Part shown: one piece after another, positions 5,663 through 36,875 of the stretch | Layout: each line of letters starts with the position of its first letter | Position numbering within the stretch: the stretch's first letter is position 1 | Origin: a virus | Taxonomy: Duplodnaviria; Caudoviricetes | Virus record (IMG/VR): IMGVR_UViG_3300017913_001833 | Span: 82,381-146,380 of that record | DNA: 64,000 nucleotides | Strand: one strand, 5' to 3' | Made by a program: the position numbers and the translations under genes | The notes under the pieces: model-generated | What the model was told of the DNA's origin: nothing | What the model saw: only the letters and a program-made list of their open reading frames with translations | Database searches by the model: none

Positions 5663-6254
5663 TTAGATCAAATTGGTCGGGCTTTTTATTTCTACTGCTT
5701 ATTGCAATATCAGGTTTTACATTAGCATGATCCCAACCTAGTTCTACTCCATCCTTATATACTTTTCTAATTGGATCTGTGTCTAATTGATCTATATATC
5801 CTATACCAAGAATAATGGCGGCTGTTTTTCCAGACCTATCTAATTTTTTTGCAACTTTACCAGGTTCAATACATCCACAAAAGCCTGTTTGTAAACCTAT
5901 TTCTTCGGCGGCAACCATTGCTATTGTTGCACTTACTATACAGTCTGCATATGTTTCTTTATCTTTATCAGATGCTATCCATGTTAAAATCACAGGAGCA
6001 AGAACTTGTCCGTTGTACCTTCTTACACCATCGCCTTCTGCGCCTCTTACTCCATTTAGGCAACAGGTATTTTTATAGTATAACCAATTTTTAAATTCTT
6101 CTGATTTAGAAACAAAAACTTCATATTCAAAATTTCCATTTTTAGATGGAGCATTGTAAAGACAATCTAGAACGTATTTTAATTTTTTATCCTCAACTTG
6201 AGAATCACTCCACCATTTTGCAGTTATACGTTTTTGTAAAAGGTCTTTTATCAT
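5646..6254 (-). CDS. Nitroreductase-family flavoprotein
   Basis: LQKRITAKWW, APSKNG, AMVAAEEIGLQTGFCGC and ILGIGY are nitroreductase FMN-binding motifs. Confidence 0.8.
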   Translation of the reverse strand: MIKDLLQKRITAKWWSDSQVEDKKLKYVLDCLYNAPSKNGNFEYEVFVSKSEEFKNWLYYKNTCCLNGVRGAEGDGVRRYNGQVLAPVILTWIASDKDKETYADCIVSATIAMVAAEEIGLQTGFCGCIEPGKVAKKLDRSGKTAAIILGIGYIDQLDTDPIRKVYKDGVELGWDHANVKPDIAISSRNKKPDQFDLIKFYR

Positions 6255-7720: not shown

Positions 7721-8472
7721 TATGTTTTGATTAGTTTGATTACCCAAGCACTTGGGTCTAATTCCCACCATTTGTGTTGAAAGTTCCATCTACCAGGTTT
7801 AGCATGATGATTGTTATGCCAACCTTCACCCCATGTAATAAGTGCAAGCCACCAAGTGTTACGGCTGTCTTCTTTTGTTTCGTAGTTTCTATATCCCCAC
7901 ATGTGATTTATGTAGTTGCTTAGAACACTGATCCAAATTTGTATTCCCATTGGAATAATACCTGCAAATATTAAAACATTTATGCCGCCTGCAATGTATA
8001 AAACTGCAAGCCATACAAGTAGTATAGCATAATAATAATTATGAAGCAAGAGATGAAATTTATCAGTGATAAGTTTTCTTACTGACCATTTATTCATTTC
8101 AAATTCATACTTAGGTATTAACACATTCCACACACCGAGATGCGGACTATGTGGATCTCCATCTTTATCAGCATTTTTATGATGATCATTGTGTATAGCA
8201 ACCCATCCAATACTACTCCCTGTTCCGCCTATAGCACCAAAAAAGGAAAACAAATATTCCATCCACTTATATCTAAATTTAAATGATCTATGTGTCAGAT
8301 AGCGATGAAATGTAACTGTAATACCTAAACATCCTGTTAAAAAATAGACAGCAATACTTAATGCCCACCATGATAGACTAGGTGCAAAGAACAGCATATA
8401 AACAATAGCCAATGTTGCTACTGCCTGTATGTATGGGAAGTAGGTTGTATTTGCTCTAAAAATGTCTCTCAT
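7720..8472 (-). CDS. Membrane delta-9-type fatty acid desaturase
   Basis: Three His boxes HRYLTH, HNDHH and GEGWHNNHH; DGDPHSP; hydrophobic transmembrane segments. Confidence 0.93.
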   Translation of the reverse strand: MRDIFRANTTYFPYIQAVATLAIVYMLFFAPSLSWWALSIAVYFLTGCLGITVTFHRYLTHRSFKFRYKWMEYLFSFFGAIGGTGSSIGWVAIHNDHHKNADKDGDPHSPHLGVWNVLIPKYEFEMNKWSVRKLITDKFHLLLHNYYYAILLVWLAVLYIAGGINVLIFAGIIPMGIQIWISVLSNYINHMWGYRNYETKEDSRNTWWLALITWGEGWHNNHHAKPGRWNFQHKWWELDPSAWVIKLIKT

Positions 8473-10392: not shown

Positions 10393-11111
10393 TAACTTTC
10401 AGCCGCTTCTAGAATGTTCAAAACTCTTAATACATTTTCATAAGTCTTAGGAATGTTGAGAACTAAATGTATACTGCCGTGCTGATAACTATGTGTCCTA
10501 TGTTGTTTACGGGTATCAATATAGTAACACCGGCCTTCTTCAATACTGCGTATACTGTAATCATGCTCCCATTGATAACTTTGATGTCCTGTATTTGTTA
10601 AAAATGCTACTATACGAAAACATTTGCGTTGTAGTAACACACCATCTCTATGGCTTGGAAACCATCCACCTTTGTTAACTTTTACAAGTGTGCAACGTCC
10701 TAACTTAGGAAAGTAATCTAATATAGGATGTAAGCTAGGAGTATCATGATATAATTGTGTAGGTGTATCGAAGTCAAGTTCATTTAATTTACGACCAGCT
10801 CGTTTTTGTGCTTCTGGCATACTAATACTATCTTGTGGTGTATCACCAGGTAACCCTACCATGTTAAGTCCGTCTCTATCATTAAGACTACCTTCACGGT
10901 GTAAGTAAGGAACCCACTGTCCGTCATATTTAGAAATTTCTTTTCTAAATTCACTTAGGTTAATTTTAATTGAAAGAGGAACAAAATCACCAATTGCATC
11001 AAGTTGCATTTCAGTAGCAATATCCAAAAGTTTTGGATGTGAAAACGTACCGTCTTTAAATGATTGTAAATAATCAATTTTAAGTTTTTTCTTTTCTTCT
11101 TCTGTTATCAT
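10392..11111 (-). CDS. Aspartyl/asparaginyl beta-hydroxylase-like Fe(II)/2OG dioxygenase
   Basis: GGWFPSHRD...EGRCYYIDTRKQH...SIHLVLN. Confidence 0.72.
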   Translation of the reverse strand: MITEEEKKKLKIDYLQSFKDGTFSHPKLLDIATEMQLDAIGDFVPLSIKINLSEFRKEISKYDGQWVPYLHREGSLNDRDGLNMVGLPGDTPQDSISMPEAQKRAGRKLNELDFDTPTQLYHDTPSLHPILDYFPKLGRCTLVKVNKGGWFPSHRDGVLLQRKCFRIVAFLTNTGHQSYQWEHDYSIRSIEEGRCYYIDTRKQHRTHSYQHGSIHLVLNIPKTYENVLRVLNILEAAES

Positions 11112-11800
11112 TGTATCTCCGTAAAAATACTTAGTCCTATTTTTCTGTCAACCCCTAGCTTTGTAAAGTCACTTGAACAATGTATTCGTAAACTATCAAA
11201 AGCAATTATACTTCCTATAGTCCAAGGAAAAAATCCTTTCACACTTAATCCTTCAAGCCAATTATCTTTCAAATGAGTTAAGACATTTCTAATAGGTTGC
11301 GGTATTCCATTTTTATTTGTGTTTTCTACTTCACTATAATCATATAATGGTTGATTGTAATAAAATGGTATATCTAAATCTTGTTCACCGTTGAACAATT
11401 TTACAGGACCGCCATAATAGTATTGGTCAAACATAACTAGTTTTATTTTGTTACAATCTCCTTTATCTACCCATAAAGGTATAGTAAATGCTTTGTACAC
11501 ATCTGGATATTCAAAACTATCATCTATGTGTAGCACATGAGGACTAGTAACATCAAAATAATGTGCAGACCTTACTTTGAAATTTCCAAACTGTTTACGT
11601 AACAAATCTAGTATGTCATCAATTACGTCTTCACCTTCTTCAACATACACAACTTTAGGACCTGTATTCTTTTCTATCTTTTCACTTGCATGATAATATT
11701 CAAGCAAACTTGTAATTTTGTCTTGATTAATTACATTTAATAATTGTGTAGATTCAGAATGTGTTTTCTTAATCCTGTTTATCTGCTCTGTTGTTCTCAT
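11108..11800 (-). CDS. Putative Fe(II)/2OG dioxygenase
   Basis: VLHID...FTIPL...WTIGSIIAFDSLRIHCS...KIGLSIFT. The likely start is ATG 11800 (MRTTEQ); the ORF-track extension overlaps the upstream gene. Confidence 0.62.
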   Translation of the reverse strand: MRTTEQINRIKKTHSESTQLLNVINQDKITSLLEYYHASEKIEKNTGPKVVYVEEGEDVIDDILDLLRKQFGNFKVRSAHYFDVTSPHVLHIDDSFEYPDVYKAFTIPLWVDKGDCNKIKLVMFDQYYYGGPVKLFNGEQDLDIPFYYNQPLYDYSEVENTNKNGIPQPIRNVLTHLKDNWLEGLSVKGFFPWTIGSIIAFDSLRIHCSSDFTKLGVDRKIGLSIFTEIQ

Positions 11801-12908
11801 CTTTAACTTTCGGTATCTTACTATCTGCAGAACTAACACAGCTCTTAGTAATACACGTTTTTGGCTCTTTAAACAGTTTAAAGCCTGTCTCGATGTTACC
11901 AAGGGGTGCATCATGGCAAGAATAACTTCTTTTTACCGAACCGTCAGGCTCCCGTATTATTATTCCGCTAAAACCGGCGTTACACCGCCATCCTTCGAAT
12001 TTATTAAAATTAAAGGCATTAAAGCGTTCTGCTTGGTCCATATACCACTTTTTACCTGTAGAGTCTTTTAGCTCTACTTGCATGTGCCATGGAACACTTG
12101 CATCATTCTTACCTGTTACTCCTGCAGGGATTTGGAATGTTGGTTTTGGTCTGCCTTCCCATTGCCTTTTGCTTTCTGTATAGGCTCGCTGGGGCATTCC
12201 GTTCCAGAGTCTGTCGAGTTGGTCTTTTGTGTATCCTTCAACAACTCGTGATGCTGTTGGATCAGACTGGGGTTTGAGAGTGACATTAATGCCTCTGGAA
12301 TGGAAAAATAAGGCATTGCTCCAGTCTCGTTCAAACCATTCTGGAACCATGACCATATTGATCGTAACTTGGATATCATGTTCTTGACATAGGATGAGTT
12401 TATTTGCAAACTCTTCCATCCTTTCAGTAGTATTTACATGTTCTGTGTGTAAACTAGCTGTAATAGAGGCCCTATGGAAAGGTTTTGCATACTCTACATA
12501 TGTTTCAAACCACTTCATAGGCCTGCTACAATTACTTGTCATATGTATGCTTGTATAATTTGTATTTCCTACATCATCTGCTAGATGTTTTAATATGTCC
12601 AAGTATCCAGGATGGAAAGTAGGTTCTCCTCCCGACAAGGAGAAATGGAAAGAATTGAAGCCGTTGAGTCTGGCTTGACGTTTGATTTCATCCACTGTAA
12701 GCAAGCAGAGCTCGGTAGGACGGTGGTCTTTACGATCACTTCTTGCGTAAGGCCAACAGTAGGAACATCTGTAGTTACAGAACCTTCCGAGTAACCAGGA
12801 TACAGTAAATAGATCGCGATAAAGCAGAGTACGTTGACCCACAGAGACAATGTCATCAAAAGGGATCTTAGTAAAGTCATAATTACTCCATTTCAAATCT
12901 TCATTCAT
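11769..12908 (-). CDS. Radical SAM enzyme with C-terminal SPASM/twitch-like Cys cluster (subfamily A)
   Basis: CNYRCSYC, LSGGEPT, MTSN; C-terminal CNAG...SC...C...C. Confidence 0.9.
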   Translation of the reverse strand: MNEDLKWSNYDFTKIPFDDIVSVGQRTLLYRDLFTVSWLLGRFCNYRCSYCWPYARSDRKDHRPTELCLLTVDEIKRQARLNGFNSFHFSLSGGEPTFHPGYLDILKHLADDVGNTNYTSIHMTSNCSRPMKWFETYVEYAKPFHRASITASLHTEHVNTTERMEEFANKLILCQEHDIQVTINMVMVPEWFERDWSNALFFHSRGINVTLKPQSDPTASRVVEGYTKDQLDRLWNGMPQRAYTESKRQWEGRPKPTFQIPAGVTGKNDASVPWHMQVELKDSTGKKWYMDQAERFNAFNFNKFEGWRCNAGFSGIIIREPDGSVKRSYSCHDAPLGNIETGFKLFKEPKTCITKSCVSSADSKIPKVKDENNRADKQD

Positions 12909-12913
12909 AATAT

Positions 12914-12942
12914 ACTATAACACCACTACAGCTATTTGTCAA
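12914..12942 (-). promoter_or_regulatory. Sigma70-type promoter TTGACA-N17-TATAGT with extended -10 (TGn), 5 nt before the ATG
   Basis: Minus strand reads TTGACA aatagctgtagtggtgt TATAGT atatt ATG(12908). Confidence 0.75.
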
Positions 12943-12945
12943 TAG

Positions 12946-12960
12946 TATTTACGATAAATA
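12946..12960. promoter_or_regulatory. Back-to-back late promoter cores (GTAAATA on -, ATAAATA on +)
   Basis: TATTTACGATAAATA followed by TTTAGGAGAC, nearly identical to the element at 2415-2444. Confidence 0.6.
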
Positions 12961-12978
12961 TTTAGGAGACAGTACAAA

Positions 12979-13560
12979 ATGACTTTGCTAGACTACGCAA
13001 AAACTATAGAACCTTGTCAAAGGAACTGGGACGAAGATTACGAAGTTCCAGATGAACATATAGATTACATATTAGACGTATGCACAACAGTTCCCACAAA
13101 ACAAAACCTAAACACCTATAGCTTAGTTACTATTACAGACAGAGAAACTATAGAAAATATATATAAAAAGTGTGCTTTTGATCCACAAGGCTATGCAGCA
13201 ACTTATCTAAAAAACAGCCAAGTAAATGCAAATGCTTTGTTCATATGGTGCAATGGCACAGACAAGGCTGAATTCAAAGATGATGTAGATATTGCAGTTG
13301 GTATAAGTTCTGGTGCTGCTGCACTTGCGGCAGCTGAACTAGGTTACAAAACAGGTTTTTGCAAATGTTTTGAACCAAGACCTCTAAGAAAAATTCTTAG
13401 AAAAGCAGGTGTAAAAGATTACAATCATGGTATACTAATGTTAGGGGTAGGTAAACCTAACGAGGATTTTCCTAGACATTACATTGTACGTGATGGAAGA
13501 TACGCAGGTTTGCAACCTCCTAAAGGTGACAAAAATATTTTGCGTCAAAGGATTAAGTAG
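12979..13560 (+). CDS. Nitroreductase-family flavoprotein
   Basis: CQRNWD, VPTKQN, ALAAAELGYKTGFCKC, LMLGVGKP; AGGAG Shine-Dalgarno sequence upstream. Confidence 0.8.
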   Translation: MTLLDYAKTIEPCQRNWDEDYEVPDEHIDYILDVCTTVPTKQNLNTYSLVTITDRETIENIYKKCAFDPQGYAATYLKNSQVNANALFIWCNGTDKAEFKDDVDIAVGISSGAAALAAAELGYKTGFCKCFEPRPLRKILRKAGVKDYNHGILMLGVGKPNEDFPRHYIVRDGRYAGLQPPKGDKNILRQRIK

Positions 13561-14719
13561 ATAATACACCTACGTCAAAATGATTAGCAACAACAGATTT
13601 ATAATTTTCTTTATACCTACTTTTAGGTGCACATAATCCGCAACCGCACACATGCTTAGGACAAGTTATAGTAGGCATAGTTTGTGATTCTAACATTTGT
13701 TTCAAGTTAGCAATAATATCTTTACCCTCACTTATTTTACCAATTGGGCCACGTGTACCATCAAAACGTGCTTGACATGTTTGATGATGGAAAACGCTGT
13801 CAGTTTGTTGTTCTAAATGTAAGAAGAACCAGTTTACACTGCACTGCCAGCCTTTGAATTCACGTAAGTCTACAAATGTTGCATTACGACTTTTTCCATT
13901 ACTGCTTAAACACATTTCTCTGCTACCGCAGCAAGGTCTGCCTTCTACTAGTCCTAGTTTTTTCTTTTCGCTAGTCTTTTCGCCTGCGGCACTTAGTACT
14001 TTTGTAACTTCTTTTTCTTTGTTAAGTTTTGCGTTTTTATTTTTCCAGAAGTCACGCATGTATGTAAGTTGTTCTTCGTTATACTTGTGTGCAAAACTGG
14101 GCTTGCTATCAGGTTCTTCACCAATAACCCGTGGTACATACTTTACACCATGTGTATCTAAGTAATCACACAAGTCCTTGCATTCGTCAAAATGCTCTGC
14201 ATGGAACATTACATTGACACTCATAGTAAGTCCGTGTTCTGGTCCATGTGTGTGAAATTGTAAAATCCTATCTCTTACTTGCTGTTTAAGTTTTTCATCA
14301 CTCTCAGCATGGTAACTTACAGTTATATGACGCATGTTTTCCATAACACGCTGAGCCATTTTTTCGCCCATTGCTCCATTACTTGTTAGTGCAAAGTTAG
14401 CTTTCCATTTATGTGCATACTTTGTTTCATATTCACTTTTTAAATATTGTATAAAAGGTATAAAGTTTGGATTTACAGTAGGTTCGCCTCCAGTAAAGCC
14501 TATACTTGTAAACTTAAAATCTCTGTATTGCATGTATGTGTCAATATACTCGAACAAAAAGTCTGTATTTGCTTTAAGTTCATCTAAACTAGCATGGGGA
14601 CTATAATTATCATGTCGTGTAACAGGACAATAACTACAATCGTAATTACAACGTCTGCCTAAATCCCAAGTAACTTGAAAAACATTACCTGTTTTAAGAT
14701 CTAAAGTATCAAAGCTCAA
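13553..14719 (-). CDS. Radical SAM enzyme with C-terminal Cys cluster (subfamily A)
   Basis: WDLGRRCNYDCSYC, FTGGEPT, LTSNG; C-terminal CSVN...C...CPKHVCGCGLC. GGAGG precedes a TTG start at 14719. Confidence 0.9.
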   Translation of the reverse strand: MSFDTLDLKTGNVFQVTWDLGRRCNYDCSYCPVTRHDNYSPHASLDELKANTDFLFEYIDTYMQYRDFKFTSIGFTGGEPTVNPNFIPFIQYLKSEYETKYAHKWKANFALTSNGAMGEKMAQRVMENMRHITVSYHAESDEKLKQQVRDRILQFHTHGPEHGLTMSVNVMFHAEHFDECKDLCDYLDTHGVKYVPRVIGEEPDSKPSFAHKYNEEQLTYMRDFWKNKNAKLNKEKEVTKVLSAAGEKTSEKKKLGLVEGRPCCGSREMCLSSNGKSRNATFVDLREFKGWQCSVNWFFLHLEQQTDSVFHHQTCQARFDGTRGPIGKISEGKDIIANLKQMLESQTMPTITCPKHVCGCGLCAPKSRYKENYKSVVANHFDVGVLST

Positions 14720-15677
14720 TGCCGTTTTCCTCCAATGCCCATGCTTTTTCTTTACACCAATAACAATGACCACATTCTTCAACATTTTTATCTTTGTTAT
14801 ACCAAAATGCATCTTTGCCTGCTAGAGGTCCTTGCATACTGCTTCCGTCACCTTCGCAACTACGTGTAAGTTTAAGCAAGTCAAGTAGATCCATATTTTT
14901 GTATTGTTTAATCACCCAATCTTTTTCGATATACTTGAACGGGTGTAGTTCCCAGAAGTGTGTTTTACAAATAGCAAGGTCATGTATGTCAGCTTTTTGA
15001 ATATCTACATCTCTATTTTGCATCCTATCTTCAGGTGCTATATCTAAATCTGCATTTTTTGTAATAGCAGTAAATATTGCTTGGTAATTATTTTCATATG
15101 CTATGTATTCATTATACTTTTCGACAATAACTTGATCGCCGCTTCGCTGTTTTGGTTCATGTATAATATATCCTATAGCACCGTGTTCAAGTTCTGGTGG
15201 AATAAAGTTTGTATTTTGTACACCGATAGTGTCGCCCCAGATATCTTTTAACTTATTATAAACTATTTTACTGATAGGCATCTGCCAAGGTCTGTTTCTC
15301 CAACCTCTATTGTGTGTGATAAGGTCAATAGTGATGTTGTAGTTGTTTTCCTGTATAATATTTGCTAGTATGCTTGTTAACACTGCACTATCAGCGCCGC
15401 CAGATAAATTAACTGCTATCCTTTCCCAACTTGGATTCAAAGGTATATACAATCCGTCAACAAAATGCAAATGGAAACCGTGTTTTTTCAACAAACTACG
15501 ATTTTCGTCTTTACGTCTTACTGTGAGTTTGCGTATTTCTTCTTCTTTTTCAATGCCACTTGCATCACTTTCACGTATAGCATCAATTTTTTCATTAACT
15601 CTACTGTGCAATACTTTTTGATATTCTACTATGTCAAAGTCAAAGTACTGATAGGTATCATATTGCTGTTTGGTCAT
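14709..15677 (-). CDS. QueC-like PP-loop ATPase with Zn-binding Cys motif
   Basis: VNLSGGADSA; HPF..IEK; TRSC...CGHCYWCKEK. Confidence 0.75.
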   Translation of the reverse strand: MTKQQYDTYQYFDFDIVEYQKVLHSRVNEKIDAIRESDASGIEKEEEIRKLTVRRKDENRSLLKKHGFHLHFVDGLYIPLNPSWERIAVNLSGGADSAVLTSILANIIQENNYNITIDLITHNRGWRNRPWQMPISKIVYNKLKDIWGDTIGVQNTNFIPPELEHGAIGYIIHEPKQRSGDQVIVEKYNEYIAYENNYQAIFTAITKNADLDIAPEDRMQNRDVDIQKADIHDLAICKTHFWELHPFKYIEKDWVIKQYKNMDLLDLLKLTRSCEGDGSSMQGPLAGKDAFWYNKDKNVEECGHCYWCKEKAWALEENGIEL

Positions 15678-16996
15678 ACTACTTCCTTTACATCCATGCT
15701 TTCTAGTTTATATTTTTTGAAATACTGATTGAAATCTTGCTTCCACAGCTTGTCCATCCTATTGGCATATATTATAAATGCTGTTTTGTCTTTTTCATGT
15801 GTTTTATGATTCACTATATAATTTCTTACTTCTTCTAAGTCTCTAAGCAAAACATATATGTCCATAAATTTATTTTTTTCCTTGTTGTACCCTCTATGAT
15901 TTTCATAACCTTCAAGTGATAAACGCTTTTTCTCAACTTTTCTTATTGCTTTGATAGTTCTTTTTATATCTACAAGTATACGCTTGCCAAATATTCTGTA
16001 TGCAACCGCAGGATTAATGTACGCAGGTGTATACACAATGCTCATCGAAACCATATTTAAATTTAATGACAACAAACTTACTAGAATATTTTGAATATCA
16101 AGCATTTGGTATATGCTTGTTGTACATACAGCATCTAATATTGTATGATTGTTGATACTTTTAAATTTTTCTAAATTATCTTTAAGAACATTCCAATCTC
16201 CGTCCCTAAAATAACTGTAAATGTTAGTACCACTGTCTACGCTTATCTTTATTGTGCTTTCTCCAAAAGGTTTGAGTAATTCATTTAACCGTTCAACATC
16301 AAATTTTGCATTAAAGTTTGTGTGGAAGAATATTTCAATATTAGAAGCGTTTGGATGCTCGGCTAATTTTTCTAAAACTGCAAAGAATTGTTTTTGATAT
16401 AACACTTCGCCGCCAGCAAAATCAATTTTTTGTATGTTAGGAAAATTTACAACTAGATCATTTGCAATTTCTAATGCATCTGCTTTACTTAAACGTATTT
16501 GTGTAGTATCATCAGGACCTTCTCTATGCTGTGTTTTTAACAGTTGTATGAGATTGTGCTTCTCATCAAGTTGGTCAGGCACATAATTTTTTAATCTAGC
16601 CGCCCAATTACTACTATATACTTCGCTACAATGTAAACAAGCCATGTTACAACTATTACTGAATCTTAATTCAACATGTTTTAATCCTGTCAAAGGCATA
16701 ATTCCTGTTTTAGGATCATATTCACGCAAGTCTATTCTATTCTGATAGTCTTGCCGCATACTACGAGTGCCTTCTCTCTCTGCTTCTTCGCACAAATGAC
16801 ATGCGTCTGGCCATTTGCCTTTATCCAGTTGCTGTCTAAATTTTCTAAATTTATCGTTATTCCAAAATTCACTAGGAAGTTTGCTGTCGATAGTCTGTAG
16901 CCTAGCAGGATTGATAGGACATGTTGTTACAAATCCATTCTTATAATTTAAACCACTGTATGCATAATAGCAAGGTAATTTAGATTTGCGCTTCAT
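15674..16996 (-). CDS. Radical SAM enzyme with N-terminal twitch-like domain (subfamily B)
   Basis: N-terminal C...TC...FWN...R...P.AC.LC...E..G..S.R; CNMACLHC; DFAGGEVL; HTN; SVD. Confidence 0.88.
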   Translation of the reverse strand: MKRKSKLPCYYAYSGLNYKNGFVTTCPINPARLQTIDSKLPSEFWNNDKFRKFRQQLDKGKWPDACHLCEEAEREGTRSMRQDYQNRIDLREYDPKTGIMPLTGLKHVELRFSNSCNMACLHCSEVYSSNWAARLKNYVPDQLDEKHNLIQLLKTQHREGPDDTTQIRLSKADALEIANDLVVNFPNIQKIDFAGGEVLYQKQFFAVLEKLAEHPNASNIEIFFHTNFNAKFDVERLNELLKPFGESTIKISVDSGTNIYSYFRDGDWNVLKDNLEKFKSINNHTILDAVCTTSIYQMLDIQNILVSLLSLNLNMVSMSIVYTPAYINPAVAYRIFGKRILVDIKRTIKAIRKVEKKRLSLEGYENHRGYNKEKNKFMDIYVLLRDLEEVRNYIVNHKTHEKDKTAFIIYANRMDKLWKQDFNQYFKKYKLESMDVKEVV

Positions 16997-17636
16997 TAGT
17001 AAAAATATCCTTTTGCATCAACCAGTCGGCTTGCCATCTACAACCAGCAGGACCAAAATGATGATTGTCATCTTCTTTAGTGAATGTTTTATACTGTTTT
17101 TCACCCAACAACTCTTTTACTATTTCAATATTTTCAAAATCACTGTGAGAATTTTTAAAATGAAAAAACATAAAGTTAGACTTTGCCTGTGCATAATGAC
17201 AATGCACTAGATGCTGATGTTTCATTGTTTTGTTACTAGTAAACTTGTAGTACAATTTTCTATATTTGATTATATCTTTTTCTGGAGGCATAAAAGCATG
17301 GAAAGAATTAGGAGTAAACCCAACTACTTTTTTATCAGGCACAGGATTTTCTAGCCTAAAATAATTATCTGTTTCAGTAATAAACTTAGGTTCGTAATTT
17401 TCTTCCCAAGCTGTTACTCTTCCGTGATTCGTAACTTGAAAAACAAAACAATTATTATCTTCAGGAAATTTTTTTATTGCATAATCTAACAGATATGTTG
17501 CAACATTTATACTTGTACCTGCTATTGCCCAATTATAAAAGTTTTTGCTAGGAAGTAATCTTGCAAGCTCTTTTACATAGTTGTTTTTCGGCCATCCTGT
17601 CCAGCTACAACCAAAGAAATGATAATTGTCAAACAT
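16980..17636 (-). CDS. SGNH/GDSL-like hydrolase or acyltransferase
   Basis: FFGCSWT (block I), YNWAIAGTS (block II), DNHHFGPAG (block V). Confidence 0.6.
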   Translation of the reverse strand: MFDNYHFFGCSWTGWPKNNYVKELARLLPSKNFYNWAIAGTSINVATYLLDYAIKKFPEDNNCFVFQVTNHGRVTAWEENYEPKFITETDNYFRLENPVPDKKVVGFTPNSFHAFMPPEKDIIKYRKLYYKFTSNKTMKHQHLVHCHYAQAKSNFMFFHFKNSHSDFENIEIVKELLGEKQYKTFTKEDDNHHFGPAGCRWQADWLMQKDIFTNEAQI

Positions 17637-19041
17637 CTTTAAAAATATCCTTCATTTCAGGGAATGTTTCAGCAAACGAGACACCGCGTTGTTGATCGCA
17701 CAGTTCTAAAAATTCTTTTGTTTCTGGTAAACGTACACTCCAGTCTTCACTTTCCATAAATCTAAGCATTCCGTCTAATCTTTTAATACCATATTCACCT
17801 TGGCGCCATGTTTCATAATCTACTTTGTCTTTATGCCAGGCTGGAATACTTCTTTCCCAATTGGCTTCCCACCAAGGATACCATGCTTCATACTTTTCTC
17901 TGCATTTTTCTTTAAACCATTTAGGCAAAACTTTCACGTTTAAATGCGCAGGCCAATACACAAAATGATAGTTAACTCCGCCGCCACTAAACGGCCACAT
18001 GTTTATCTTTTTAAATCCTTGCTCTACCTTCCATTGGATAAGATCAGGAATGTAATACACGTTAAGAGCTTGCACTGCACAAGCAACAGTAACTTCTACA
18101 TTAGAAGATGTTTGCTTGTCTAGCTTGTGAAAAGTTTTAACTTGATTATTCCAGTTGCTAGGATAGCGGATATAATCATTCATTTCTTTTATACTGTCAA
18201 TGCTATAATGGAAACGCACTATTTTAAAATGCTTCCAAAGATCAAACAAATCTTCTCGCCATTCAACACCATTTGAATTATAACGTAATTCTAAATTTTT
18301 AGCATATCCCATCTTAATAGCATATTCAAGTATTTCGTAATGTTCTTCAATAATAAGACTTTCGCCACCTGCAAAATAAATTTGTTGCATACTTGGCATT
18401 TGTTCGTAAAATTGTTTCCAGAATGTAGGATTTTGTTTATGCCAATTGTAACTACTTCCGTTTGTACTACCTTTGTCTTTCCATTGCATTATCTCTTTTA
18501 GTGATTCATTCTGCACTGCTGGAAATACTGCTTTCCAATCTTTGATCCATCCTGAACTATCATGAGGCGAACACATAACACAAGCAAGCTGACATTTGGT
18601 TCCGAAACGTAAATCGATATATGCTAGATTAGGAGGCACACTTCCATCAGGATTTGTTTCTTGCAATATTTTATCAAGGTCAACACGTTGTTCCCAATAT
18701 TTTGTTTCCCATTGCCTCTTACTTCTATGTCCTGCAGCTTCTTCTTTGTAGCACTTTAAACAGCTAGGAGGCATTTCTCCATTTAGCATCTGCAGGCGTA
18801 CATTCTTCATATAGTCACTGTTCCATGCTGTTTCAAAATCACTAACATTTAAATTGTTAGGCCGACCTTCTTCGTCTTTTAAGATACCTACTTGACCGCC
18901 ATGCTGTTTGTCATTAGTAGGACCTACGGAACTTGCATTTGCTGTACAGCATACACGCATACTGCCGTCTGGTCTTGTACTTAGGTGTACCCAAGGTAGT
19001 AAGCAAAAAGTATTTGATGGATATTTTGTTTTCTCTGTCAT
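17629..19041 (-). CDS. Radical SAM enzyme with N-terminal twitch-like domain (subfamily B)
   Basis: FCLLPW...RVCC...WN...R..ML.G..P.SCLKC; CQLACVMC; YFAGGESL; YNSNG. Confidence 0.9.
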   Translation of the reverse strand: MTEKTKYPSNTFCLLPWVHLSTRPDGSMRVCCTANASSVGPTNDKQHGGQVGILKDEEGRPNNLNVSDFETAWNSDYMKNVRLQMLNGEMPPSCLKCYKEEAAGHRSKRQWETKYWEQRVDLDKILQETNPDGSVPPNLAYIDLRFGTKCQLACVMCSPHDSSGWIKDWKAVFPAVQNESLKEIMQWKDKGSTNGSSYNWHKQNPTFWKQFYEQMPSMQQIYFAGGESLIIEEHYEILEYAIKMGYAKNLELRYNSNGVEWREDLFDLWKHFKIVRFHYSIDSIKEMNDYIRYPSNWNNQVKTFHKLDKQTSSNVEVTVACAVQALNVYYIPDLIQWKVEQGFKKINMWPFSGGGVNYHFVYWPAHLNVKVLPKWFKEKCREKYEAWYPWWEANWERSIPAWHKDKVDYETWRQGEYGIKRLDGMLRFMESEDWSVRLPETKEFLELCDQQRGVSFAETFPEMKDIFKDV

Positions 19042-19059
19042 TATATACGTACTTATTAG

Positions 19060-20091
19060 TTAGTGAGCTGTGTGTATTTGATTATTGATTGTTGAGATAA
19101 TATTCTCTTTACAATGGTGTATACACTTGTCAAAAGACTCTTTTATTATCTGCTCGTGTAAGTTGCTGTACCAAGGACTATCTAATATTTCTTGGAAGCT
19201 CTTTCCACTGTTTACATTATTATCATCTTTATCATACTTGTAACTATAAGTATCCTCCAGTGTTGCTAATTGTATTTCTGTTCCCCACCAACAACAAGGC
19301 AATACTGTACCTTGCACAGTGGTATATAATCCTGTATCTAATCCGTGATAATCCGGTCTGTGACATGCTTTGCATACAACTTTTTGTGTAGTTTCTTGTG
19401 TTGCAAGTTCATGTTTACCTTGGCCAGGAGTAACTATTTTATGTTCTCGAGATTTAGTACCTCTAAACTTTATACGTTCAAAACCTTCTTCTATGCTACG
19501 TTGTTTTGCAAGTTCATCTTGATGCTCATTGTGTTTGAAATAAATGAATTGCCAACTTGCGCGACCGCCTGCAGAAATATATGTTCTAAAGTTATCTTGT
19601 AGTTTGTCCCAATCTACATTTCTACGATAGATATGATTAGTATCTTCCAATCCATCTATACCCCATATAACATTTAATCTGCTTAGTGTAGGACGATTGA
19701 TATACATATTTTTTGCACCAATCTTTCCTAGGCTTTTCCAAAATTCAGTATTGCGTGTTCCGCCATTAGTAGCAATATTAACTTGTAGTGACCTGCTAAA
19801 TTTACCACACCCAAATATCCATTCTACTATTTCTAACAATTCTGGATTTGTTGTTGGTTCATCATAGTTTCCGCAAAAGTCAATTAGTCTAAGACTTTCC
19901 CATTCATCATTACTCATCCAATTCTTAAATTTTTCAAAAGATACATATGTATCATTTAGTCCAATGTAATTTTTTGTTTCAGGTTTATCGTAACTTTTTT
20001 CTCTAGCACAAGCAGGACATCTAGCATTACAATAGTTGCTGATCTCCATTTGTAGTTTTTTAATTTCTTTTGCAGCTACTGGCCAGCTCAT
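19060..20091 (-). CDS. Radical SAM/SPASM enzyme (subfamily C)
   Basis: CNARCPAC, FCGNYDEP, ATNGG, IDG..DTNHIYR, FKHNEHQ, PCC...C...C. Confidence 0.9.
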   Translation of the reverse strand: MSWPVAAKEIKKLQMEISNYCNARCPACAREKSYDKPETKNYIGLNDTYVSFEKFKNWMSNDEWESLRLIDFCGNYDEPTTNPELLEIVEWIFGCGKFSRSLQVNIATNGGTRNTEFWKSLGKIGAKNMYINRPTLSRLNVIWGIDGLEDTNHIYRRNVDWDKLQDNFRTYISAGGRASWQFIYFKHNEHQDELAKQRSIEEGFERIKFRGTKSREHKIVTPGQGKHELATQETTQKVVCKACHRPDYHGLDTGLYTTVQGTVLPCCWWGTEIQLATLEDTYSYKYDKDDNNVNSGKSFQEILDSPWYSNLHEQIIKESFDKCIHHCKENIISTINNQIHTAH

Positions 20092-21029
20092 AGTTGTTCC
20101 TTGATAAACTTATCACGCTTGTTTTCTTTACATGTACTTTGGCATTTGCCTATACGGTTATTTCCAGTCCAACTGTTCTTGATATCTGTCCATACCTTGC
20201 CTGTCATTGCTTGTTCAAGTGTAACGTTTGCAAGATTTATATCATTCATGTAATCGTTGTCTACAAGTATTTCTTCAAATCTATCTTTTTGTTTTCCATT
20301 GACTGCAAACTCTAACATCTTACTGTTGAGGTGACAACAAGGAATAACATTGCCCATGTGGTTAACAAATATACGTTTTTGATTTCCATATTTGCAACTA
20401 ATGCAAGGTGATTCTTCTACTTCAACTTTTTTGTGTTTTACTCCACCAGTATCTTTCCTATGACTGATAATTGTTTTGAATTCTTTAAAGCCCTCGTCTT
20501 TGGCCATTTGTCTAGCAATTTCTAATTGATGTTCATTGTGTTCAAATACAATAAACTGCCAGTTAGCTCTACCGCCTGCACCTATAAAAGCTCTCCAGTT
20601 GTTTCTTACTTTTTTAAAATTACTACCTTCTCTATACTGCTCACTTGTTTCGTCACTGCCGTCTATACCCCAAGTAACTTTATGACTGCGTGGTAGAATT
20701 GTTGCAAGTTTTGACCACCATGCTTCTGTACGCAAGCTACCATTGGTTGCAATGTTGATATGACAATTCCACTGTGCAAAATGTTCGACTATTTCAAAAA
20801 AGTCTGGATGAGTAGTAGGTTCATCAACACTACCACAAAAATTAATGATCTTTATATTAGGAAACATATCTTTTTGAAACTTTTCTTTTATAACATTGAC
20901 ATCAAGATAAGTTTTGTTTAATATTTTATCTGCTTCATTAGACAGTACACGGAAACAACCTTTACAACGTATGTTGCAAAAACTTGTAAGTTCAATATCT
21001 ATCCATTCTAAATTATTACTATTCCACAT
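20088..21029 (-). CDS. Radical SAM/SPASM enzyme (subfamily C)
   Basis: CNIRCKGC, FCGSVDEP, ATNG, FEHNEHQ, IPCC, CQSTC. Confidence 0.9.
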   Translation of the reverse strand: MWNSNNLEWIDIELTSFCNIRCKGCFRVLSNEADKILNKTYLDVNVIKEKFQKDMFPNIKIINFCGSVDEPTTHPDFFEIVEHFAQWNCHINIATNGSLRTEAWWSKLATILPRSHKVTWGIDGSDETSEQYREGSNFKKVRNNWRAFIGAGGRANWQFIVFEHNEHQLEIARQMAKDEGFKEFKTIISHRKDTGGVKHKKVEVEESPCISCKYGNQKRIFVNHMGNVIPCCHLNSKMLEFAVNGKQKDRFEEILVDNDYMNDINLANVTLEQAMTGKVWTDIKNSWTGNNRIGKCQSTCKENKRDKFIKEQL

Positions 21030-22081
21030 TATTCAAAACACCAAGGTATAACTTGCGGACTGTTAGTTCCGCGTTTTTTATCTAAATCAATTAAAAACCT
21101 CTGCATGGTTTTATTTGCCTTTTCGTTGTACTCATACTTTTTCAAAAAGCTATGAATAGATTTATTTGTTGTATCTTCTGCTACTTTTTGCACTACATGC
21201 GGTTTGAGAGCATTGATTTGTAAATGCTCCGGATACGTTACTGTATGTAGATCATAACTTGCATTCCATCTACTTGTAAGTTCATTTACTGTTTTATCAA
21301 GCACAGGTAAATTCATTGCTTGCGATGTAATGTTAAAGTATATATGGATAGGATTTAGTGCAAACAGTTCATCAGCATTCTTTACAAAAGTTTCATGCTT
21401 TGTTGGAAATCTGATTAGTTCGTTAACTTCTTCCCAGCCGTCAATACTAAGACTAAATTCTAGTTTCTTAAATTTAGCAAGAATATCTAAAAACTTTTTT
21501 GTATTGCTAACACAATTGGTTTGTATTTGTATAATTGTGTTCTTAGCATTCCAACTATTGCTACCAAGTTTGTCAAGGAAGTTATGTACTTCTTTCATAT
21601 AAAAAGGTTCCCCTCCTGCAATATAAACAAACTTTGCTGTGTTTACCATTTTATCGTATAACCAGTTCCAGTCTATATCACTACGTTCTCCAAAATGTTC
21701 TGTGCTATACTTAGAATAAACATCTAAATCTTCAAGCCATTTACTACTTTGTTTTGGACTGCACATTGCACATTTCAAATTACAAGTATGACCAGGACGT
21801 ATGTCCCAATGATCTAATCCTTGTCCTCTTTGTATGCTTCTTAATCTTTTACTGCTTAATCCTATTTCTTCTCTACGTAAACAATTATTACATGCAGGAT
21901 TAGCTTTCCAGTCCGTTTTAAAGCCTTGCCTTATTTTATTAATCACAGGATTATCTAGTAATTGATCCAATGTATCAACATGCGATTTGTTTTTATCATC
22001 ATAAAGACAACAAGGCCTTACAATATAACCTTGTGGTTCCTTTTCAACATATAGACTGTTGATAGATTCTAAGCATGTCAT
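21029..22081 (-). CDS. Radical SAM enzyme with N-terminal twitch-like domain (subfamily B)
   Basis: RPCC...CNNC...E..G.SS.R; CNLKCAMC; YIAGGEPF; QTN; SIDG. Confidence 0.9.
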   Translation of the reverse strand: MTCLESINSLYVEKEPQGYIVRPCCLYDDKNKSHVDTLDQLLDNPVINKIRQGFKTDWKANPACNNCLRREEIGLSSKRLRSIQRGQGLDHWDIRPGHTCNLKCAMCSPKQSSKWLEDLDVYSKYSTEHFGERSDIDWNWLYDKMVNTAKFVYIAGGEPFYMKEVHNFLDKLGSNSWNAKNTIIQIQTNCVSNTKKFLDILAKFKKLEFSLSIDGWEEVNELIRFPTKHETFVKNADELFALNPIHIYFNITSQAMNLPVLDKTVNELTSRWNASYDLHTVTYPEHLQINALKPHVVQKVAEDTTNKSIHSFLKKYEYNEKANKTMQRFLIDLDKKRGTNSPQVIPWCFE

Positions 22082-23139
22082 GTTTGGTCCTTCAATTCAT
22101 TATGATATGCTTTGTTGTAGCCACATGTTACAATACATCTACGGAAATGCTTTTCATGTGCAGGATCCCAACTTTCTGCTAGTATTTTATCAAACCAAGG
22201 ATGAGAAAGTATTTCATCAATGCTATGAGTCTTTAAACTATTCCAACCTGTTTCGTATTCTGCTAATTTGTCGTTGATGTTTTCTTTATTTTTTTGTGCC
22301 CAATCAGAAAGGAAACAACAAGGCCACATTGTTTGTTTGGCACTTATAAATATTTCGCCTTCGTGAATTAATTTACATTTGATACTACGCACTACTGTTT
22401 GTGTTTCTTCTTTTGTCTTGTTTTCTTTTTCTATAAACTTGTATAACTCTTGTACTTGTGCTTTTTTGCTGTGTTCTTTACTTCCGGTAGTTGTAATTGC
22501 TTTTTTAACTTTTGAATTTTTCTTTCCTATTTCTGCAACCCATGTATGATAACTGTTACGCATACCTGTTCTTGTTGCGAAATTAAATCCTAAACGTTTA
22601 GCATGTTCTTTGGCTGCTTCTAGTTCGTGTTCGTTGTGATCAAAAACAATAAACACCCATTTTGCTCTGTAGGCAAATTCACCTACTGCTTCACTGAATG
22701 CATTCATGTTACGTTCTAATACTGACCATTTTGTGTTTACTCTGTATATGTGGTTAGTTTCTTTGTGTCCGTCTACACAGAAGTGTATGTGGAATTTGCG
22801 CTGATACTTTGCACACATATGACCTAGTCTAGTCCACATGTCAACAGGGCCAACTGCACCGTTAGTGCTAATGCTAACCATGCCTTGATTTTCTAACAAA
22901 TATTCTAGCATTTCTGCAAACTGTGGATGAATAGCAGGATCGCCTAGCACGCCGCAAAACTTAAATTCAACACCGTCATAGTCTCCAGGAGGAAACATTC
23001 TCTTAAGATCATCCAGACTAAAATCTGTAACTTGTAGATTGCCTTTTGCAAGCTCTTGTGTTCTTGCACAGCCTGGACAGGCGGCATTGCAATCACTTGT
23101 AATTTCTAGTTCAACTTTTTTAATATCACTTAGTTTCAT
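22078..23139 (-). CDS. Radical SAM/SPASM enzyme (subfamily C)
   Basis: CNAACPGC, FCGVLGDP, STNG, VDG..ETNHIYR, FDHNEH, WPCC, CIVTC. Confidence 0.9.
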   Translation of the reverse strand: MKLSDIKKVELEITSDCNAACPGCARTQELAKGNLQVTDFSLDDLKRMFPPGDYDGVEFKFCGVLGDPAIHPQFAEMLEYLLENQGMVSISTNGAVGPVDMWTRLGHMCAKYQRKFHIHFCVDGHKETNHIYRVNTKWSVLERNMNAFSEAVGEFAYRAKWVFIVFDHNEHELEAAKEHAKRLGFNFATRTGMRNSYHTWVAEIGKKNSKVKKAITTTGSKEHSKKAQVQELYKFIEKENKTKEETQTVVRSIKCKLIHEGEIFISAKQTMWPCCFLSDWAQKNKENINDKLAEYETGWNSLKTHSIDEILSHPWFDKILAESWDPAHEKHFRRCIVTCGYNKAYHNELKDQT

Positions 23140-24218
23140 TCATCGCTCCATTGTGCTTTATATGGATCAAATTCTATACCGCACTTTTCAGAACATACTG
23201 ATAATTTGCCTTCTTTACAACTAGACAAACTCCAACCTGATTGAATGTTGTCAAATATACCTGTTGCAAAAACTTTATCTAGTCCTTGCTTTGCATTTAG
23301 ATTTTGTTTGCCGCCGATGTTTTCTATATAACGCCATATAGGTTCTATTGTAGGATCTTTATGGTACCATTTGTACATACGTGTAGCAGTCCAACAGCAA
23401 GGCAGTGCTAAGCCTTCTGCTGTTATAAACAAACTACCTTCTTCTTTTACTTTGCACTTGATAGGTACAGCATCGTAATAGTTTTGCATACTACCATACT
23501 TGTCTAACAGTGCATCTTGCTTGTTACGTGTTTTGTTTTGATATTTCTTAGCAGGCTTTTTAATAATTTTTGCAGTTTCACCTTTTTTACTTTTTGCTTG
23601 GTGTTCTTCTTTTTTATCTTTTTTTGCTGTAACAAATCTGTCAGTCTTTTTTGCAATAAATCTTTCAAACCCTAATTCGTTGGCAAATGCTTCTGCTTGT
23701 TCAACTTGATGTTGATTATGTTCAAACACAAGAAAATCCCAACGAGCTCTTCCACCTGCATTTATAAAAGAACGCATACTGCGTTCTACATTGTCCCAAA
23801 CCACGTTCTGCCTGTATATGTGGTTAGTATCCCTAAGCCCGTCCACACTAAAAATAACAGCACCCATCCTACCATAGACTTGGGCCAGTTCTGTCCACCA
23901 CGCTTCATCTCTTGCTCCTGCATTTGTATTCATGCTTAACCACATATTTGGATTATGCTCACGGAAATATTTGAATATCTCTAATGTATCTCTTGCAATT
24001 ATAGGATCTCCTAAGTTGCCGCACATAAACATAGTTTTAAGTTGTGCTACAAACTCAGGTTTGAATATACGTTTACAATCTTCAAGTGATAGTTCATCAA
24101 GATTGATGTGTGGATTAACACCTTCGCCATTCATGTTACGATCACACATAGGACATGCCGCCTGGCAGTTTTGTGTAACTTCTAAATGTATTGCTCTTAT
24201 ATCTTCATAATTATACAT
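23136..24218 (-). CDS. Radical SAM/SPASM enzyme (subfamily C)
   Basis: CQAACPMC, MCGNLGDP, NTNAG, VDG..DTNHIYR, FEHNQHQ, LPCC, CSEKC. Confidence 0.9.
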   Translation of the reverse strand: MYNYEDIRAIHLEVTQNCQAACPMCDRNMNGEGVNPHINLDELSLEDCKRIFKPEFVAQLKTMFMCGNLGDPIIARDTLEIFKYFREHNPNMWLSMNTNAGARDEAWWTELAQVYGRMGAVIFSVDGLRDTNHIYRQNVVWDNVERSMRSFINAGGRARWDFLVFEHNQHQVEQAEAFANELGFERFIAKKTDRFVTAKKDKKEEHQAKSKKGETAKIIKKPAKKYQNKTRNKQDALLDKYGSMQNYYDAVPIKCKVKEEGSLFITAEGLALPCCWTATRMYKWYHKDPTIEPIWRYIENIGGKQNLNAKQGLDKVFATGIFDNIQSGWSLSSCKEGKLSVCSEKCGIEFDPYKAQWSDE

Positions 24219-24720
24219 TGTGTATCCTATTATTTACAAGCCATGCTAGTTGATTCCAACTAGCAATATACTTACCTGACATTATTTCATCAATAACTAT
24301 AAAAGAGTCTATGTCTAACAGTTTTAATTTTAGATCATGTGTGAACACTAAATTTTTTAAGTACATGTCTTGGTGCATAAAATATTGTCCTTGAGGCAAA
24401 TTTTCATGCGAGAATTGTATGCAGTCTGTGTAAATTTGACAAAAAACTTGCAGTGCTTCTGCAATATTTTTATTAGGTATTTCATACTTGTCTGGGTAAT
24501 CTAACAAACATTCTACAAGAGTGCAATATGGTCTAATCTTTTTCATACTATACTGTGTAGGACTTTCCCAAGTAATTACTGGTACACAATATTCTTTATC
24601 CTTGCTAAACTTTTTGTAAAGTTCGAAGTTTTCTTTTGTAAACGTACCGTACTTTAATTCTTTGCTTACAAAGTTCTTACCATGATACAGATTTGATCTA
24701 ATAAATTCTTGTTTAATCAT
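24211..24720 (-). CDS. Minimal protein-kinase-like (ePK/APH-fold) protein
   Basis: FMHQDMYLKNLVF (HxD-x4-N catalytic loop) and LKLLDID (metal-binding Asp). Confidence 0.6.
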   Translation of the reverse strand: MIKQEFIRSNLYHGKNFVSKELKYGTFTKENFELYKKFSKDKEYCVPVITWESPTQYSMKKIRPYCTLVECLLDYPDKYEIPNKNIAEALQVFCQIYTDCIQFSHENLPQGQYFMHQDMYLKNLVFTHDLKLKLLDIDSFIVIDEIMSGKYIASWNQLAWLVNNRIHNV

Positions 24721-24937
24721 TGTATAATAATTTTATATCTTTCCCAGGTCCTGTTTTGCTAGGAAGATCTCCGTATTGTTCTATGTACCAATCAATAACA
24801 GCCTTGTACCAATTTTGGCTGTTGTGATGTGCCTGCTTATTGAACTGAAAAATATTATTGTTGGTTGCTTGCATTGTGCTCAGGGCTCTTGCACTTTCTT
24901 GTTGCAACTGCCTAAGTGTTAAATTATTTAAGTCCAA
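24713..24937 (-). CDS. Small hypothetical protein (74 aa)
   Basis: Overlaps both neighbours in the same orientation; no recognisable motif. Confidence 0.65.
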   Translation of the reverse strand: MDLNNLTLRQLQQESARALSTMQATNNNIFQFNKQAHHNSQNWYKAVIDWYIEQYGDLPSKTGPGKDIKLLYND

Positions 24938-30750: not shown

Positions 30751-30758
30751 TATTTATA
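30751..30758 (-). promoter_or_regulatory. Exact T4 late promoter TATAAATA containing the stop codon of the upstream gene
   Basis: Plus strand tatttata at 30751-30758. Confidence 0.75.
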
Positions 30759-32256: not shown

Positions 32257-32279
32257 TTGTTATAACCCCTAATACAATG

Positions 32280-32286
32280 TATTTAT
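32280..32286 (-). promoter_or_regulatory. Late promoter core ATAAATA
   Basis: tatttat in the intergenic spacer, with an AGGGG Shine-Dalgarno sequence downstream on -. Confidence 0.6.
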
Positions 32287-32290
32287 TCGT

Positions 32291-36868: not shown

Positions 36869-36875
36869 TATTTAT
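36869..36875 (-). promoter_or_regulatory. Late promoter core ATAAATA overlapping the stop codon of the giant gene
   Basis: Minus strand reads CGA-TAA-ATA, then an AGGA Shine-Dalgarno sequence and ATG at 36852. Confidence 0.6.

Follow-up and report, generated by a model that had tools for sequence, protein, structure and literature searches.

The 64,000-bp stretch of DNA analyzed here (the window) is the terminal 64 kb of the 146,380-bp viral record IMGVR_UViG_3300017913_001833 (record positions 82,381 to 146,380) and contains, between positions 11769 and 24218, nine open reading frames (ORFs), all on the minus strand, which a first-pass annotation had assigned to three interleaved paralogous subfamilies of SPASM/twitch radical S-adenosylmethionine (SAM) enzymes. 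The nine ORFs are present at these positions and were named by rising coordinate A1 (11769 to 12908), A2 (13553 to 14812), B1 (15674 to 16996), B2 (17629 to 19041), C1 (19060 to 20091), C2 (20088 to 21029), B3 (21029 to 22081), C3 (22078 to 23139) and C4 (23136 to 24218). Each predicted protein retains one intact CX3CX2C (CxxxCxxC) motif. All-against-all BLASTP returned exactly the proposed groups of two (A), three (B) and four (C) proteins, with 23% identity between A1 and A2 over 370 aa, 24 to 27% among B1, B2 and B3, 25 to 34% among C1 to C4, and scores of 35 bits or less between subfamilies. Subfamily hidden Markov models (HMMs) scored 200 to 590 bits against their own family compared to 25 bits or less against the others. 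The motifs listed for each subfamily were also recovered: W.LGR.CNY.CSYC and GGEPT in A1 and A2, AGGE in B1, B2 and B3, CG...(D/E)P, F.HN.H and PCC in all four C proteins, and DG...TNHIYR in C1, C3 and C4, C2 being the member that lacks it. The subfamilies are indeed interleaved, as B3 lies between C2 and C3.

The suggestion that these genes result from old expansions was borne out, since the paralogues share 21 to 34% identity with one another compared to 50 to 91% with their own orthologues in other phages. Comparison of the nine genes with their closest orthologues gave nonsynonymous divergence (dN) of 0.06 to 0.39 versus synonymous divergence (dS) of 1 to 2.9, the dN/dS ratios being rough because dS is near saturation. 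These values give no sign of relaxed selection and indicate that all nine genes are under purifying selection.

All nine proteins match the radical SAM domain PF04055, seven of them above the gathering score of 29.5 bits, including A1 (57.8 bits, with CNYRCSYC at residue 44), A2 (47.6 bits), C2 (36.9 bits) and C4 (32 bits). C1 (24.9 bits, CNARCPAC at residue 21) and C3 (19.6 bits, CNAACPGC at residue 17) fall below this score and are nevertheless placed in subfamily C by its HMM (460 and 299 bits, respectively). Subfamily B belongs to the family NF033640, with 212 bits for B1, 429 bits for B2 and 203 bits for B3 against a cut-off of 170 bits, whereas the six A and C proteins score 29 to 59 bits and are non-members. 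No curated family fits subfamilies A and C at the NCBIfam cut-offs; their best named matches (MoaA, viperin, anSME and a tungsten-enzyme maturase) span only the cluster-binding region. The best named match of subfamily C is TIGR04317, a tungsten-cofactor oxidoreductase maturase family with a cut-off of 380 bits, to which C2, C3, C4 and C1 score 69, 45, 40 and 36 bits, respectively. Clustering with well-characterized housekeeping families, which the first-pass annotation had named as contradicting its proposal, was not seen, as the best scores stay far below the cut-offs of MoaA (40 versus 284 bits), QueE (21 versus 206), NrdG (24 versus 131), anSME (33 versus 349) and viperin (43.5 versus 180). 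Searches of PDB sequences with single proteins and with profiles likewise returned weak matches to the cluster-binding region only. C1 has more than 1200 metagenomic homologues, none of them named. NF033640 comprises about 8,400 representative clusters, among which are tandem double and triple fusions of the whole enzyme as well as fusions to TPR repeats or to an FkbM methyltransferase (proteins P0249, P0251, P0271, P0276, P0285, P0293, P0372 and P0393). Among its distant relatives, one lies beside a phage primase/helicase gene and one FkbM fusion is found on a 5-kb contig. No true NF033640 member was found in 14 model genomes, and a literature search found no paper naming the family. Distant B-like genes (21 to 25% identity to B2 by protein search) in Vibrio phages K566 and K567 and in Ralstonia phage RsoM2USA were considered as orthologous models and rejected, as tblastn revealed no other cassette gene in these phages.

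The cysteine content qualifies the assignment to SPASM/twitch enzymes, which stands as a fold class. In subfamily B the auxiliary cysteines are N-terminal (C13, C31, C94 and C97, ahead of C150, C154 and C157, in B2 numbering), and Pfam SPASM matches residues 13 to 98 of B2 at 25.1 bits; C2 matches SPASM at 19.3 bits, under the cut-off. A1 has four conserved C-terminal cysteines (C309, C331, C352 and C357) and the C family five, in the pattern C-X20-G-X4-CC plus CX3C. With four to five conserved auxiliary cysteines in eight of the nine proteins, the count is insufficient for the seven-cysteine SPASM motif (CX9-15GX4C ... CX2CX5CX3C ... C), and only A2, with nine C-terminal cysteines, has enough for a full two-cluster SPASM domain. 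The counts thus look compatible with one auxiliary cluster in A1 and in the B and C proteins, and with two in A2 only. The AlphaFold2 model of C1 (pLDDT 88) adopts a partial TIM-barrel of the SPASM/twitch type and aligns to solved members with Z-scores around 18.

Mapping of the window proteins against 85 related phage loci revealed a recurrent gene order: p854, p74, C4, variable radical SAM genes, B2, further variable radical SAM genes, and A1. In this order p854 (24924 to 27488, minus strand) codes for an 854-aa protein, and the start of p74 (24713 to 24937, minus strand), coding for 74 aa, overlaps its end. Across phage loci A1 is 80 to 91% identical, B2 80 to 86% and C4 59 to 75%. C4 is present in nearly every phage locus, always as the first radical SAM gene after p74, and B2, the best-conserved gene of the cassette, occurs at 77 to 86% identity in over 200 viral contigs. 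The remaining six radical SAM genes are present, absent, or swapped for paralogues of 21 to 35% identity. A2 is either 61 to 84% identical or replaced by paralogues of 30 to 44% identity, and in some loci orthologues were found for B1 (44 to 67%), B3 (48 to 55%), C2 (65 to 91%) and C3 (51 to 76%). The fixed anchors of the cassette are therefore A1, B2, C4, p854 and p74, and its remaining six radical SAM genes vary between lineages, as do the genes for a QueC-like ATPase, a kinase-like protein, a nitroreductase and a 218-aa protein described below. Since 50 full-length 21-kb loci contain 5 to 13 radical SAM genes (mean 9.4; 0 to 3 of subfamily A, 1 to 9 of B and 1 to 5 of C), the nine genes of the window are typical for this clade. 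The first-pass annotation had proposed that the copies act on different residues or sugars of a shared substrate or serve as a diversifying toolkit. The shifting combinations of 5 to 13 genes per 21 kb fit a toolkit, but the nine are not equivalent, and only six genes are variable and behave as such tools, A1, B2 and C4 being a conserved core with orthologues in Bdellovibrionota.

Some of the related contigs call for comment. The cassette is found in its phage form, with p74 and genes associated with fibres, on four contigs from metagenome-assembled genomes (L096, L097, L129 and L153) whose bins are labelled Crocinitomicaceae, Neisseriaceae, Rickettsiales and Gammaproteobacteria; these contigs are probably phage sequence that ended up in bacterial bins. 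In the pilon-polished 322-kb ENA contig L012, several cassette genes are broken into two or three ORFs, which look like assembly frameshifts and not real pseudogenes.

The invariant partner p854 comprises two homologous domains of about 230 to 290 aa each, both with a DGD motif, after which come helical repeats, variable in number, and a Rossmann-type domain. All bacterial homologues share the DGD of the two domains, and G65 and D66 are invariant columns. Matches to Pfam GT2 glycosyltransferase families remain under the cut-off (E ~1e-3), and a profile of the GT-A-like part returned no sequence match among PDB chains. Foldseek searches with the AlphaFold model (pLDDT 73, pTM 0.37) ranked K4CP, the two-GT-A chondroitin polymerase of E. 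coli K4, first, then Mimivirus R699 and human LH3 (E 5e-6 to 1e-3; probability 0.9 to 1.0), with low TM-scores, the domains being loosely placed, and matched the C-terminus to SAM methyltransferases, CntL and nicotianamine synthases (NAS). From this model and the weak sequence evidence for GT2, we regard p854 as a putative protein with two tandem GT-A-like domains and a C-terminal class-I methyltransferase-like domain. It is often split into two genes in related phage loci. The p74 protein is 66 to 83% identical in nearly all phage loci, uniformly along its length, contains no cysteine, had no family match in searches of the Pfam/NCBIfam type, and is missing from the bacterial loci described next. 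We considered p74 as a precursor of a peptide made on the ribosome and modified after translation (RiPP), which is unlikely given its uniform conservation, the lack of cysteine, its constancy while the enzyme set changes and its absence from the bacterial module.

A scan of species-representative genomes with the B2 alignment identified about 50 loci in Bdellovibrionota, some on complete chromosomes and one, L122, in the isolate Bdellovibrio sp. HCB2-146. In these chromosomes a core quartet is clustered, made of B2 (54 to 60% identity), C4 (40 to 46%), A1 (56 to 67%) and p854-like GT-A and methyltransferase genes (31 to 46%). In 30 of 51 loci all members of the quartet fall within 10 kb, with C4 adjoining A1 and the GT-A-like and methyltransferase-like parts of p854 encoded by separate genes beside B2, C4 and A1. 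The flanks of the module vary from locus to locus and consist of ordinary chromosomal or housekeeping genes, in which GT2 is the commonest family (7 of 81 clusters); two canonical GT2 genes (E 1e-16) lie inside the module of Bdellovibrio sp. HCB2-146. Genes for O-antigen export did not appear among the 25 commonest families tallied in the flanks. A quick tree of B2, with distant paralogues as root, places the phage clade inside Bdellovibrionota sequences; its backbone support is only 81 to 91, and we propose no direction of transfer. Large fibre proteins with a Peptidase_S74 chaperone domain are encoded near the module at L122:17242-21309, L156:1998-5306 and L112:17302-19857. A fibre link in Bdellovibrionota was dropped, as S74 fibre genes occur in only 3 of about 50 loci, at about three per Mb, which is not an enrichment over what the many fibre genes of such genomes would lead one to expect.

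The first-pass annotation had left open whether the enzymes act on peptides or on sugars. The context now favours a sugar, short of proof, given the tandem GT-A protein encoded upstream, the bacterial GT2 genes, the sugar-nucleotide accessory genes and the lack of a precursor, RRE or leader peptidase. A Pfam tally over 140 clusters of non-radical-SAM genes from phage arrays included UDP-glucose/GDP-mannose dehydrogenase, CTP_transf_3 (two clusters), sulfotransferase (two clusters) and NAD epimerase/GDP-mannose dehydratase, next to FkbM and further methyltransferases, GATase_7 (glutamine amidotransferase), TauD, Asp/Arg hydroxylases and the frequent QueC-like ATPase. No Pfam family of the PqqD/RRE, leader peptidase, YcaO or transporter/exporter type was found in the nine proteins, their ten neighbours or the 140 accessory clusters. 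Moreover, CX3CX2C sits 17 to 55 residues from the N-terminus in subfamilies A and C, too close to it for an RRE to fit in front. Nor was a variable-core precursor peptide recognized beside a maturase, p74 being the sole conserved small ORF, although a precursor encoded elsewhere may have escaped recognition.

We therefore give about even chances to a reading of the cassette as a pathway for building and editing a glycan in the cytoplasm, carried directly behind the tail-fibre genes by what appears to be an uncultured clade of marine T4-like jumbo phages. The pathway would operate in the host cytoplasm, since all cassette proteins appear soluble: no membrane segment was found in them, and the only exception is a desaturase encoded outside the array. 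In this pathway p854 would transfer or polymerize sugars from nucleotide sugars, and each radical SAM enzyme would remove one particular hydrogen of a sugar by means of a 5'-deoxyadenosyl radical, with a single auxiliary cluster (two in A2) serving in redox. The outcomes might be those of sugar-acting twitch enzymes, namely oxidation, epimerization, dehydration or deoxygenation, decarboxylation, and formation of C-C or C-methyl bonds, and exchange of accessory enzymes between phages would alter the structure of the final glycan. While the gene content, its conservation, the division into core and accessory genes and the association with glycosyltransferase genes are directly observed, the sugar substrate and the individual reactions are what we infer from them, and a virion fibre protein as destination of the product, or alternatively the host envelope, is a guess from the position of the cassette. 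We hold only tentatively, and as doubtful, the fuller scenario of a glycan-diversifying radical SAM system inherited from or shared with predatory Bdellovibrionota, in which the three-enzyme core would make an unusual sugar, the swappable paralogues would rewrite it and the product would be displayed on the host-recognition fibres.

Several observations weigh against the glycan pathway. The window contains no gene for nucleotide-sugar synthesis, and the analysis identified none for an acceptor, for export or for attachment. Fold scores of C1 are tied between sugar- and peptide-acting enzymes (VIA-align Z 18.7 for SuiB, 18.2 for BlsE, 18.0 for SkfB, 17.8 for anSME and 17.4 for DesII), and p854 stays under all Pfam glycosyltransferase thresholds, with the low model confidence and TM-scores given above. 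GT-A folds also glycosylate proteins, as in R699 and LH3, so that the sugar may sit on a protein targeted by some of the radical SAM enzymes. The neighbours of the array in the window, which include TauD and Asp/Asn-hydroxylase-like proteins and a desaturase, would fit protein or lipid targets equally well. To our knowledge, subfamilies A, B and C have no characterized relative, and the activities discussed here are predictions.

The position of the array bears on a second explanation. Three tail-fibre or collar genes (30754 to 36234) lie upstream of a minus-strand run of abutting or overlapping genes that extends from 30727 to 13553 and leads into the array. The T4-type late-promoter consensus TATAAATA is found just upstream of this run, on the minus strand at 30751 to 30758, its sole minus-strand copy in the 64 kb; the consensus is depleted in the window (2 matches versus about 10 expected). 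The best sigma70-like site (12942 to 12914) is immediately upstream of A1. The few intergenic gaps contain this late-promoter consensus as well as the best two sigma70-like sites, so that the timing of expression is not readable from the sequence.

An array behind three fibre genes, readable from a late-promoter consensus, would suit maturation of a protein or peptide, the radical SAM enzymes cross-linking, epimerizing or similarly marking a structural protein of the phage (from tail fibre or baseplate) or a small peptide and p854 glycosylating the same protein. The C1 model, equally like SuiB, SkfB, anSME, ChlB and CteB, is compatible with such a role, as are the protein glycosyltransferases R699 and LH3 among the structural neighbours of p854, the fusion of some NF033640 relatives to TPR repeats and the recurrence of Asp/Arg-hydroxylase and TauD genes in the arrays. 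We nonetheless consider maturation unlikely, because none of the PqqD/RRE, leader peptidase, YcaO and transporter genes that it would call for appeared in the search described above, because the only candidate substrate of small size, p74, stays uniform and Cys-free while the enzyme set varies and is not part of the bacterial module, and because S74-chaperone fibre genes accompany that module so rarely. The single-cluster cysteine count of eight of the nine genes also speaks against it, as does the lack in the window of collagen-like repeats, the type of target used by R699 and LH3.

Downstream of the array, a B12-binding radical SAM gene (6251 to 7789, minus strand) adjoins a fatty-acid desaturase gene (7720 to 8472, minus strand), and the related contigs L044 and L096 carry the pair with 81 to 82% conservation. 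The best matches of the B12-binding protein are lipid and P-methyltransferase families, far under cut-off. Together with desaturases that recur in phage and bacterial flanks, and with the Trp halogenase, AMP-binding and fatty-acid hydroxylase genes of some arrays, these genes could indicate that the array, with desaturase, B12-radical SAM and oxygenase genes, makes a diffusible metabolite or a modified lipid during infection. However, they lie outside the conserved frame of the cassette and outside the core common to bacteria, no polyketide synthase, nonribosomal peptide synthetase, carrier protein or export gene was seen, and the invariant partner is a GT-A-type protein. We thus regard a small-molecule or lipid pathway as improbable.

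The commonest non-radical-SAM accessory gene, whose cluster occurs in 36 loci, codes in the window (14709 to 15677, minus strand) for a 322-aa QueC-like PP-loop ATPase with an SGGADS motif, a C-terminal C...CGHCYWC motif and weak PP-loop/TilS matches; its cluster representative matches Pfam QueC with E 1.2e-5. The protein carries an N-terminal extension of about 80 aa. Phage glycosyltransferases acting on DNA are known from T4, and a QueC-like gene in the array, combined with weak N-terminal matches of subfamily A to the nucleotide-acting viperin and MoaA, might suggest that the enzymes tailor a base or a base-linked sugar of phage DNA. Such hypermodification appears the least probable of the explanations considered and has little in its favour once the scale of these matches is taken into account: they reach about 40 bits against cut-offs of 180 and 284 bits and are confined to the cluster-binding region. 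In addition, the QueC-like gene is accessory and not in the bacterial module, the core sits among housekeeping genes in Bdellovibrionota with no DpdA/TGT-type gene noted in the flanks, and the cassette itself sits in the fibre region.

The array also contains other accessory genes. A nitroreductase-family gene (12979 to 13560; PF00881, E 2.7e-7), the sole plus-strand gene of the array, is present in part of the related loci. The 218-aa protein encoded at 16980 to 17636 (minus strand) has weak relatives in few loci and no Pfam or NCBIfam match; its N-terminal FFGCSWTGW recalls, by eye only, the SGNH GDS(L) motif with a cysteine. A 169-aa protein encoded at 24211 to 24720 (minus strand) has a weak match to ABC1 kinases (E 0.007), an HQDMYLKN...DID motif of the kinase-like form HxDxxxxN...DxD and relatives of 22 to 43% identity in 18 loci. 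The start of A2 is probably a TTG codon at about 14719 and not 14812, as pointed to by orthologues beginning with MSFDT. Similarly, orthologues place the start of a 268-aa gene (ORF 11108 to 11914) at about 11800, the start of the longest ORF being probably too early.

In the wider setting, 11 radical SAM matches were found in a search of the whole 146-kb record, and T4-type PHROG matches were strong for the baseplate wedge and hub-lysozyme genes. The CheckV completeness of the record is 39%, which points to a jumbo phage as its source, and related contigs reach 382 kb. No close DNA match was found among 50,697 deposited phage genomes. A single 4971-aa ORF (36872 to 51787, minus strand) separates the baseplate wedge gene from the fibre genes and may be a counterpart of the giant VrlC-type baseplate protein of pelagimyophages (PMC7029224).

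The array places three uncharacterized subfamilies, in nine intact copies, in abundant ocean phages. Radical SAM enzymes, most of them without known function, achieve reactions that are very difficult by other means. The division into core and accessory genes narrows the question to five co-expressible genes, and the Bdellovibrionota counterpart, which includes an isolate, offers a culturable route to the module. If the glycan pathway is real, large phages would build chemically unusual sugars beside their host-recognition genes, with a bearing on host range, evasion of recognition and the discovery of sugar-editing enzymes. If, beyond this, the glycan decorates the fibres, phages would vary their surface chemistry as well as their fibre sequence, which would amount to a new kind of viral glycosylation and to several new radical SAM sugar chemistries. 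Should the glycan pathway prove wrong, fibre cross-linking or a new metabolite would be equally unstudied.

Comparison with known systems begins with the family NF033640 (N_Twi_rSAM), whose layout of a four-cysteine auxiliary domain ahead of the CX3CX2C core is shared by B1, B2 and B3. This family is defined by sequence only and tells nothing about subfamilies A and C. The array shares its fold class with the sugar-acting twitch enzymes BlsE, BtrN, DesII and SpeY, BlsE being the top Foldseek match of the C1 model (E 2e-9). VIA-align of C1 placed BtrN (Z 15.7) behind BlsE and DesII. The likeness extends to the single-auxiliary-cluster cysteine count of most members and to UDP-glucose dehydrogenase in related loci. 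However, identity is only 12 to 17%, no curated cut-off is reached, and these enzymes work singly in antibiotic pathways, not in arrays of 5 to 13 paralogues. The RiPP and protein maturases SuiB, SkfB, CteB and anSME match the C1 fold as well, and a PDB search with the B profile gave SkfB as its best sequence match (E 1e-11). In contrast to their systems, the array comes with no RRE, variable-core precursor, peptidase or exporter, and only A2 has a full SPASM cysteine count. The p854 model aligns with K4CP, R699 and LH3 over both GT-A domains, each with a DXD-type DGD, but differs from them by its helical repeats and methyltransferase-like domain and by the lack of sequence similarity to PDB entries.

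Virus-borne genes for cytoplasmic sugar building and transfer are also known from virion glycosylation in Mimivirus fibrils, chloroviruses and mycobacteriophages, systems in which we know of no radical SAM enzymes. The likeness lies in viruses bringing their own sugar-building genes, attachment to the virion being here a guess from gene position. The R699 protein of Mimivirus is a collagen glucosyltransferase (PMC9546862). Similar in genomic setting is the hypervariable "host recognition cluster" of pelagimyophages, where genes for tail fibres and glycosyltransferases occur with "radical SAM cassettes" (Zaragoza-Solas et al. 2020, PMC7029224), as is the genome of a marine T4-like phage in which 12 radical SAM genes were noted (Nishimura et al. 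2017, PMC5332604). As here, both concern marine T4-like phages with a hypervariable region among structural genes, although the present phage, of which a 146-kb fragment has an estimated completeness of 39%, is apparently much larger. These studies noted gene presence only and gave no core/accessory split, subfamilies, bacterial counterpart or function. The cassette of the window is thus a typical member of a widespread system that had been noted but not characterized, to which the present analysis adds the distinction of core from accessory genes, the partner protein with tandem GT-A-like and methyltransferase-like domains, and the module shared with Bdellovibrionota.

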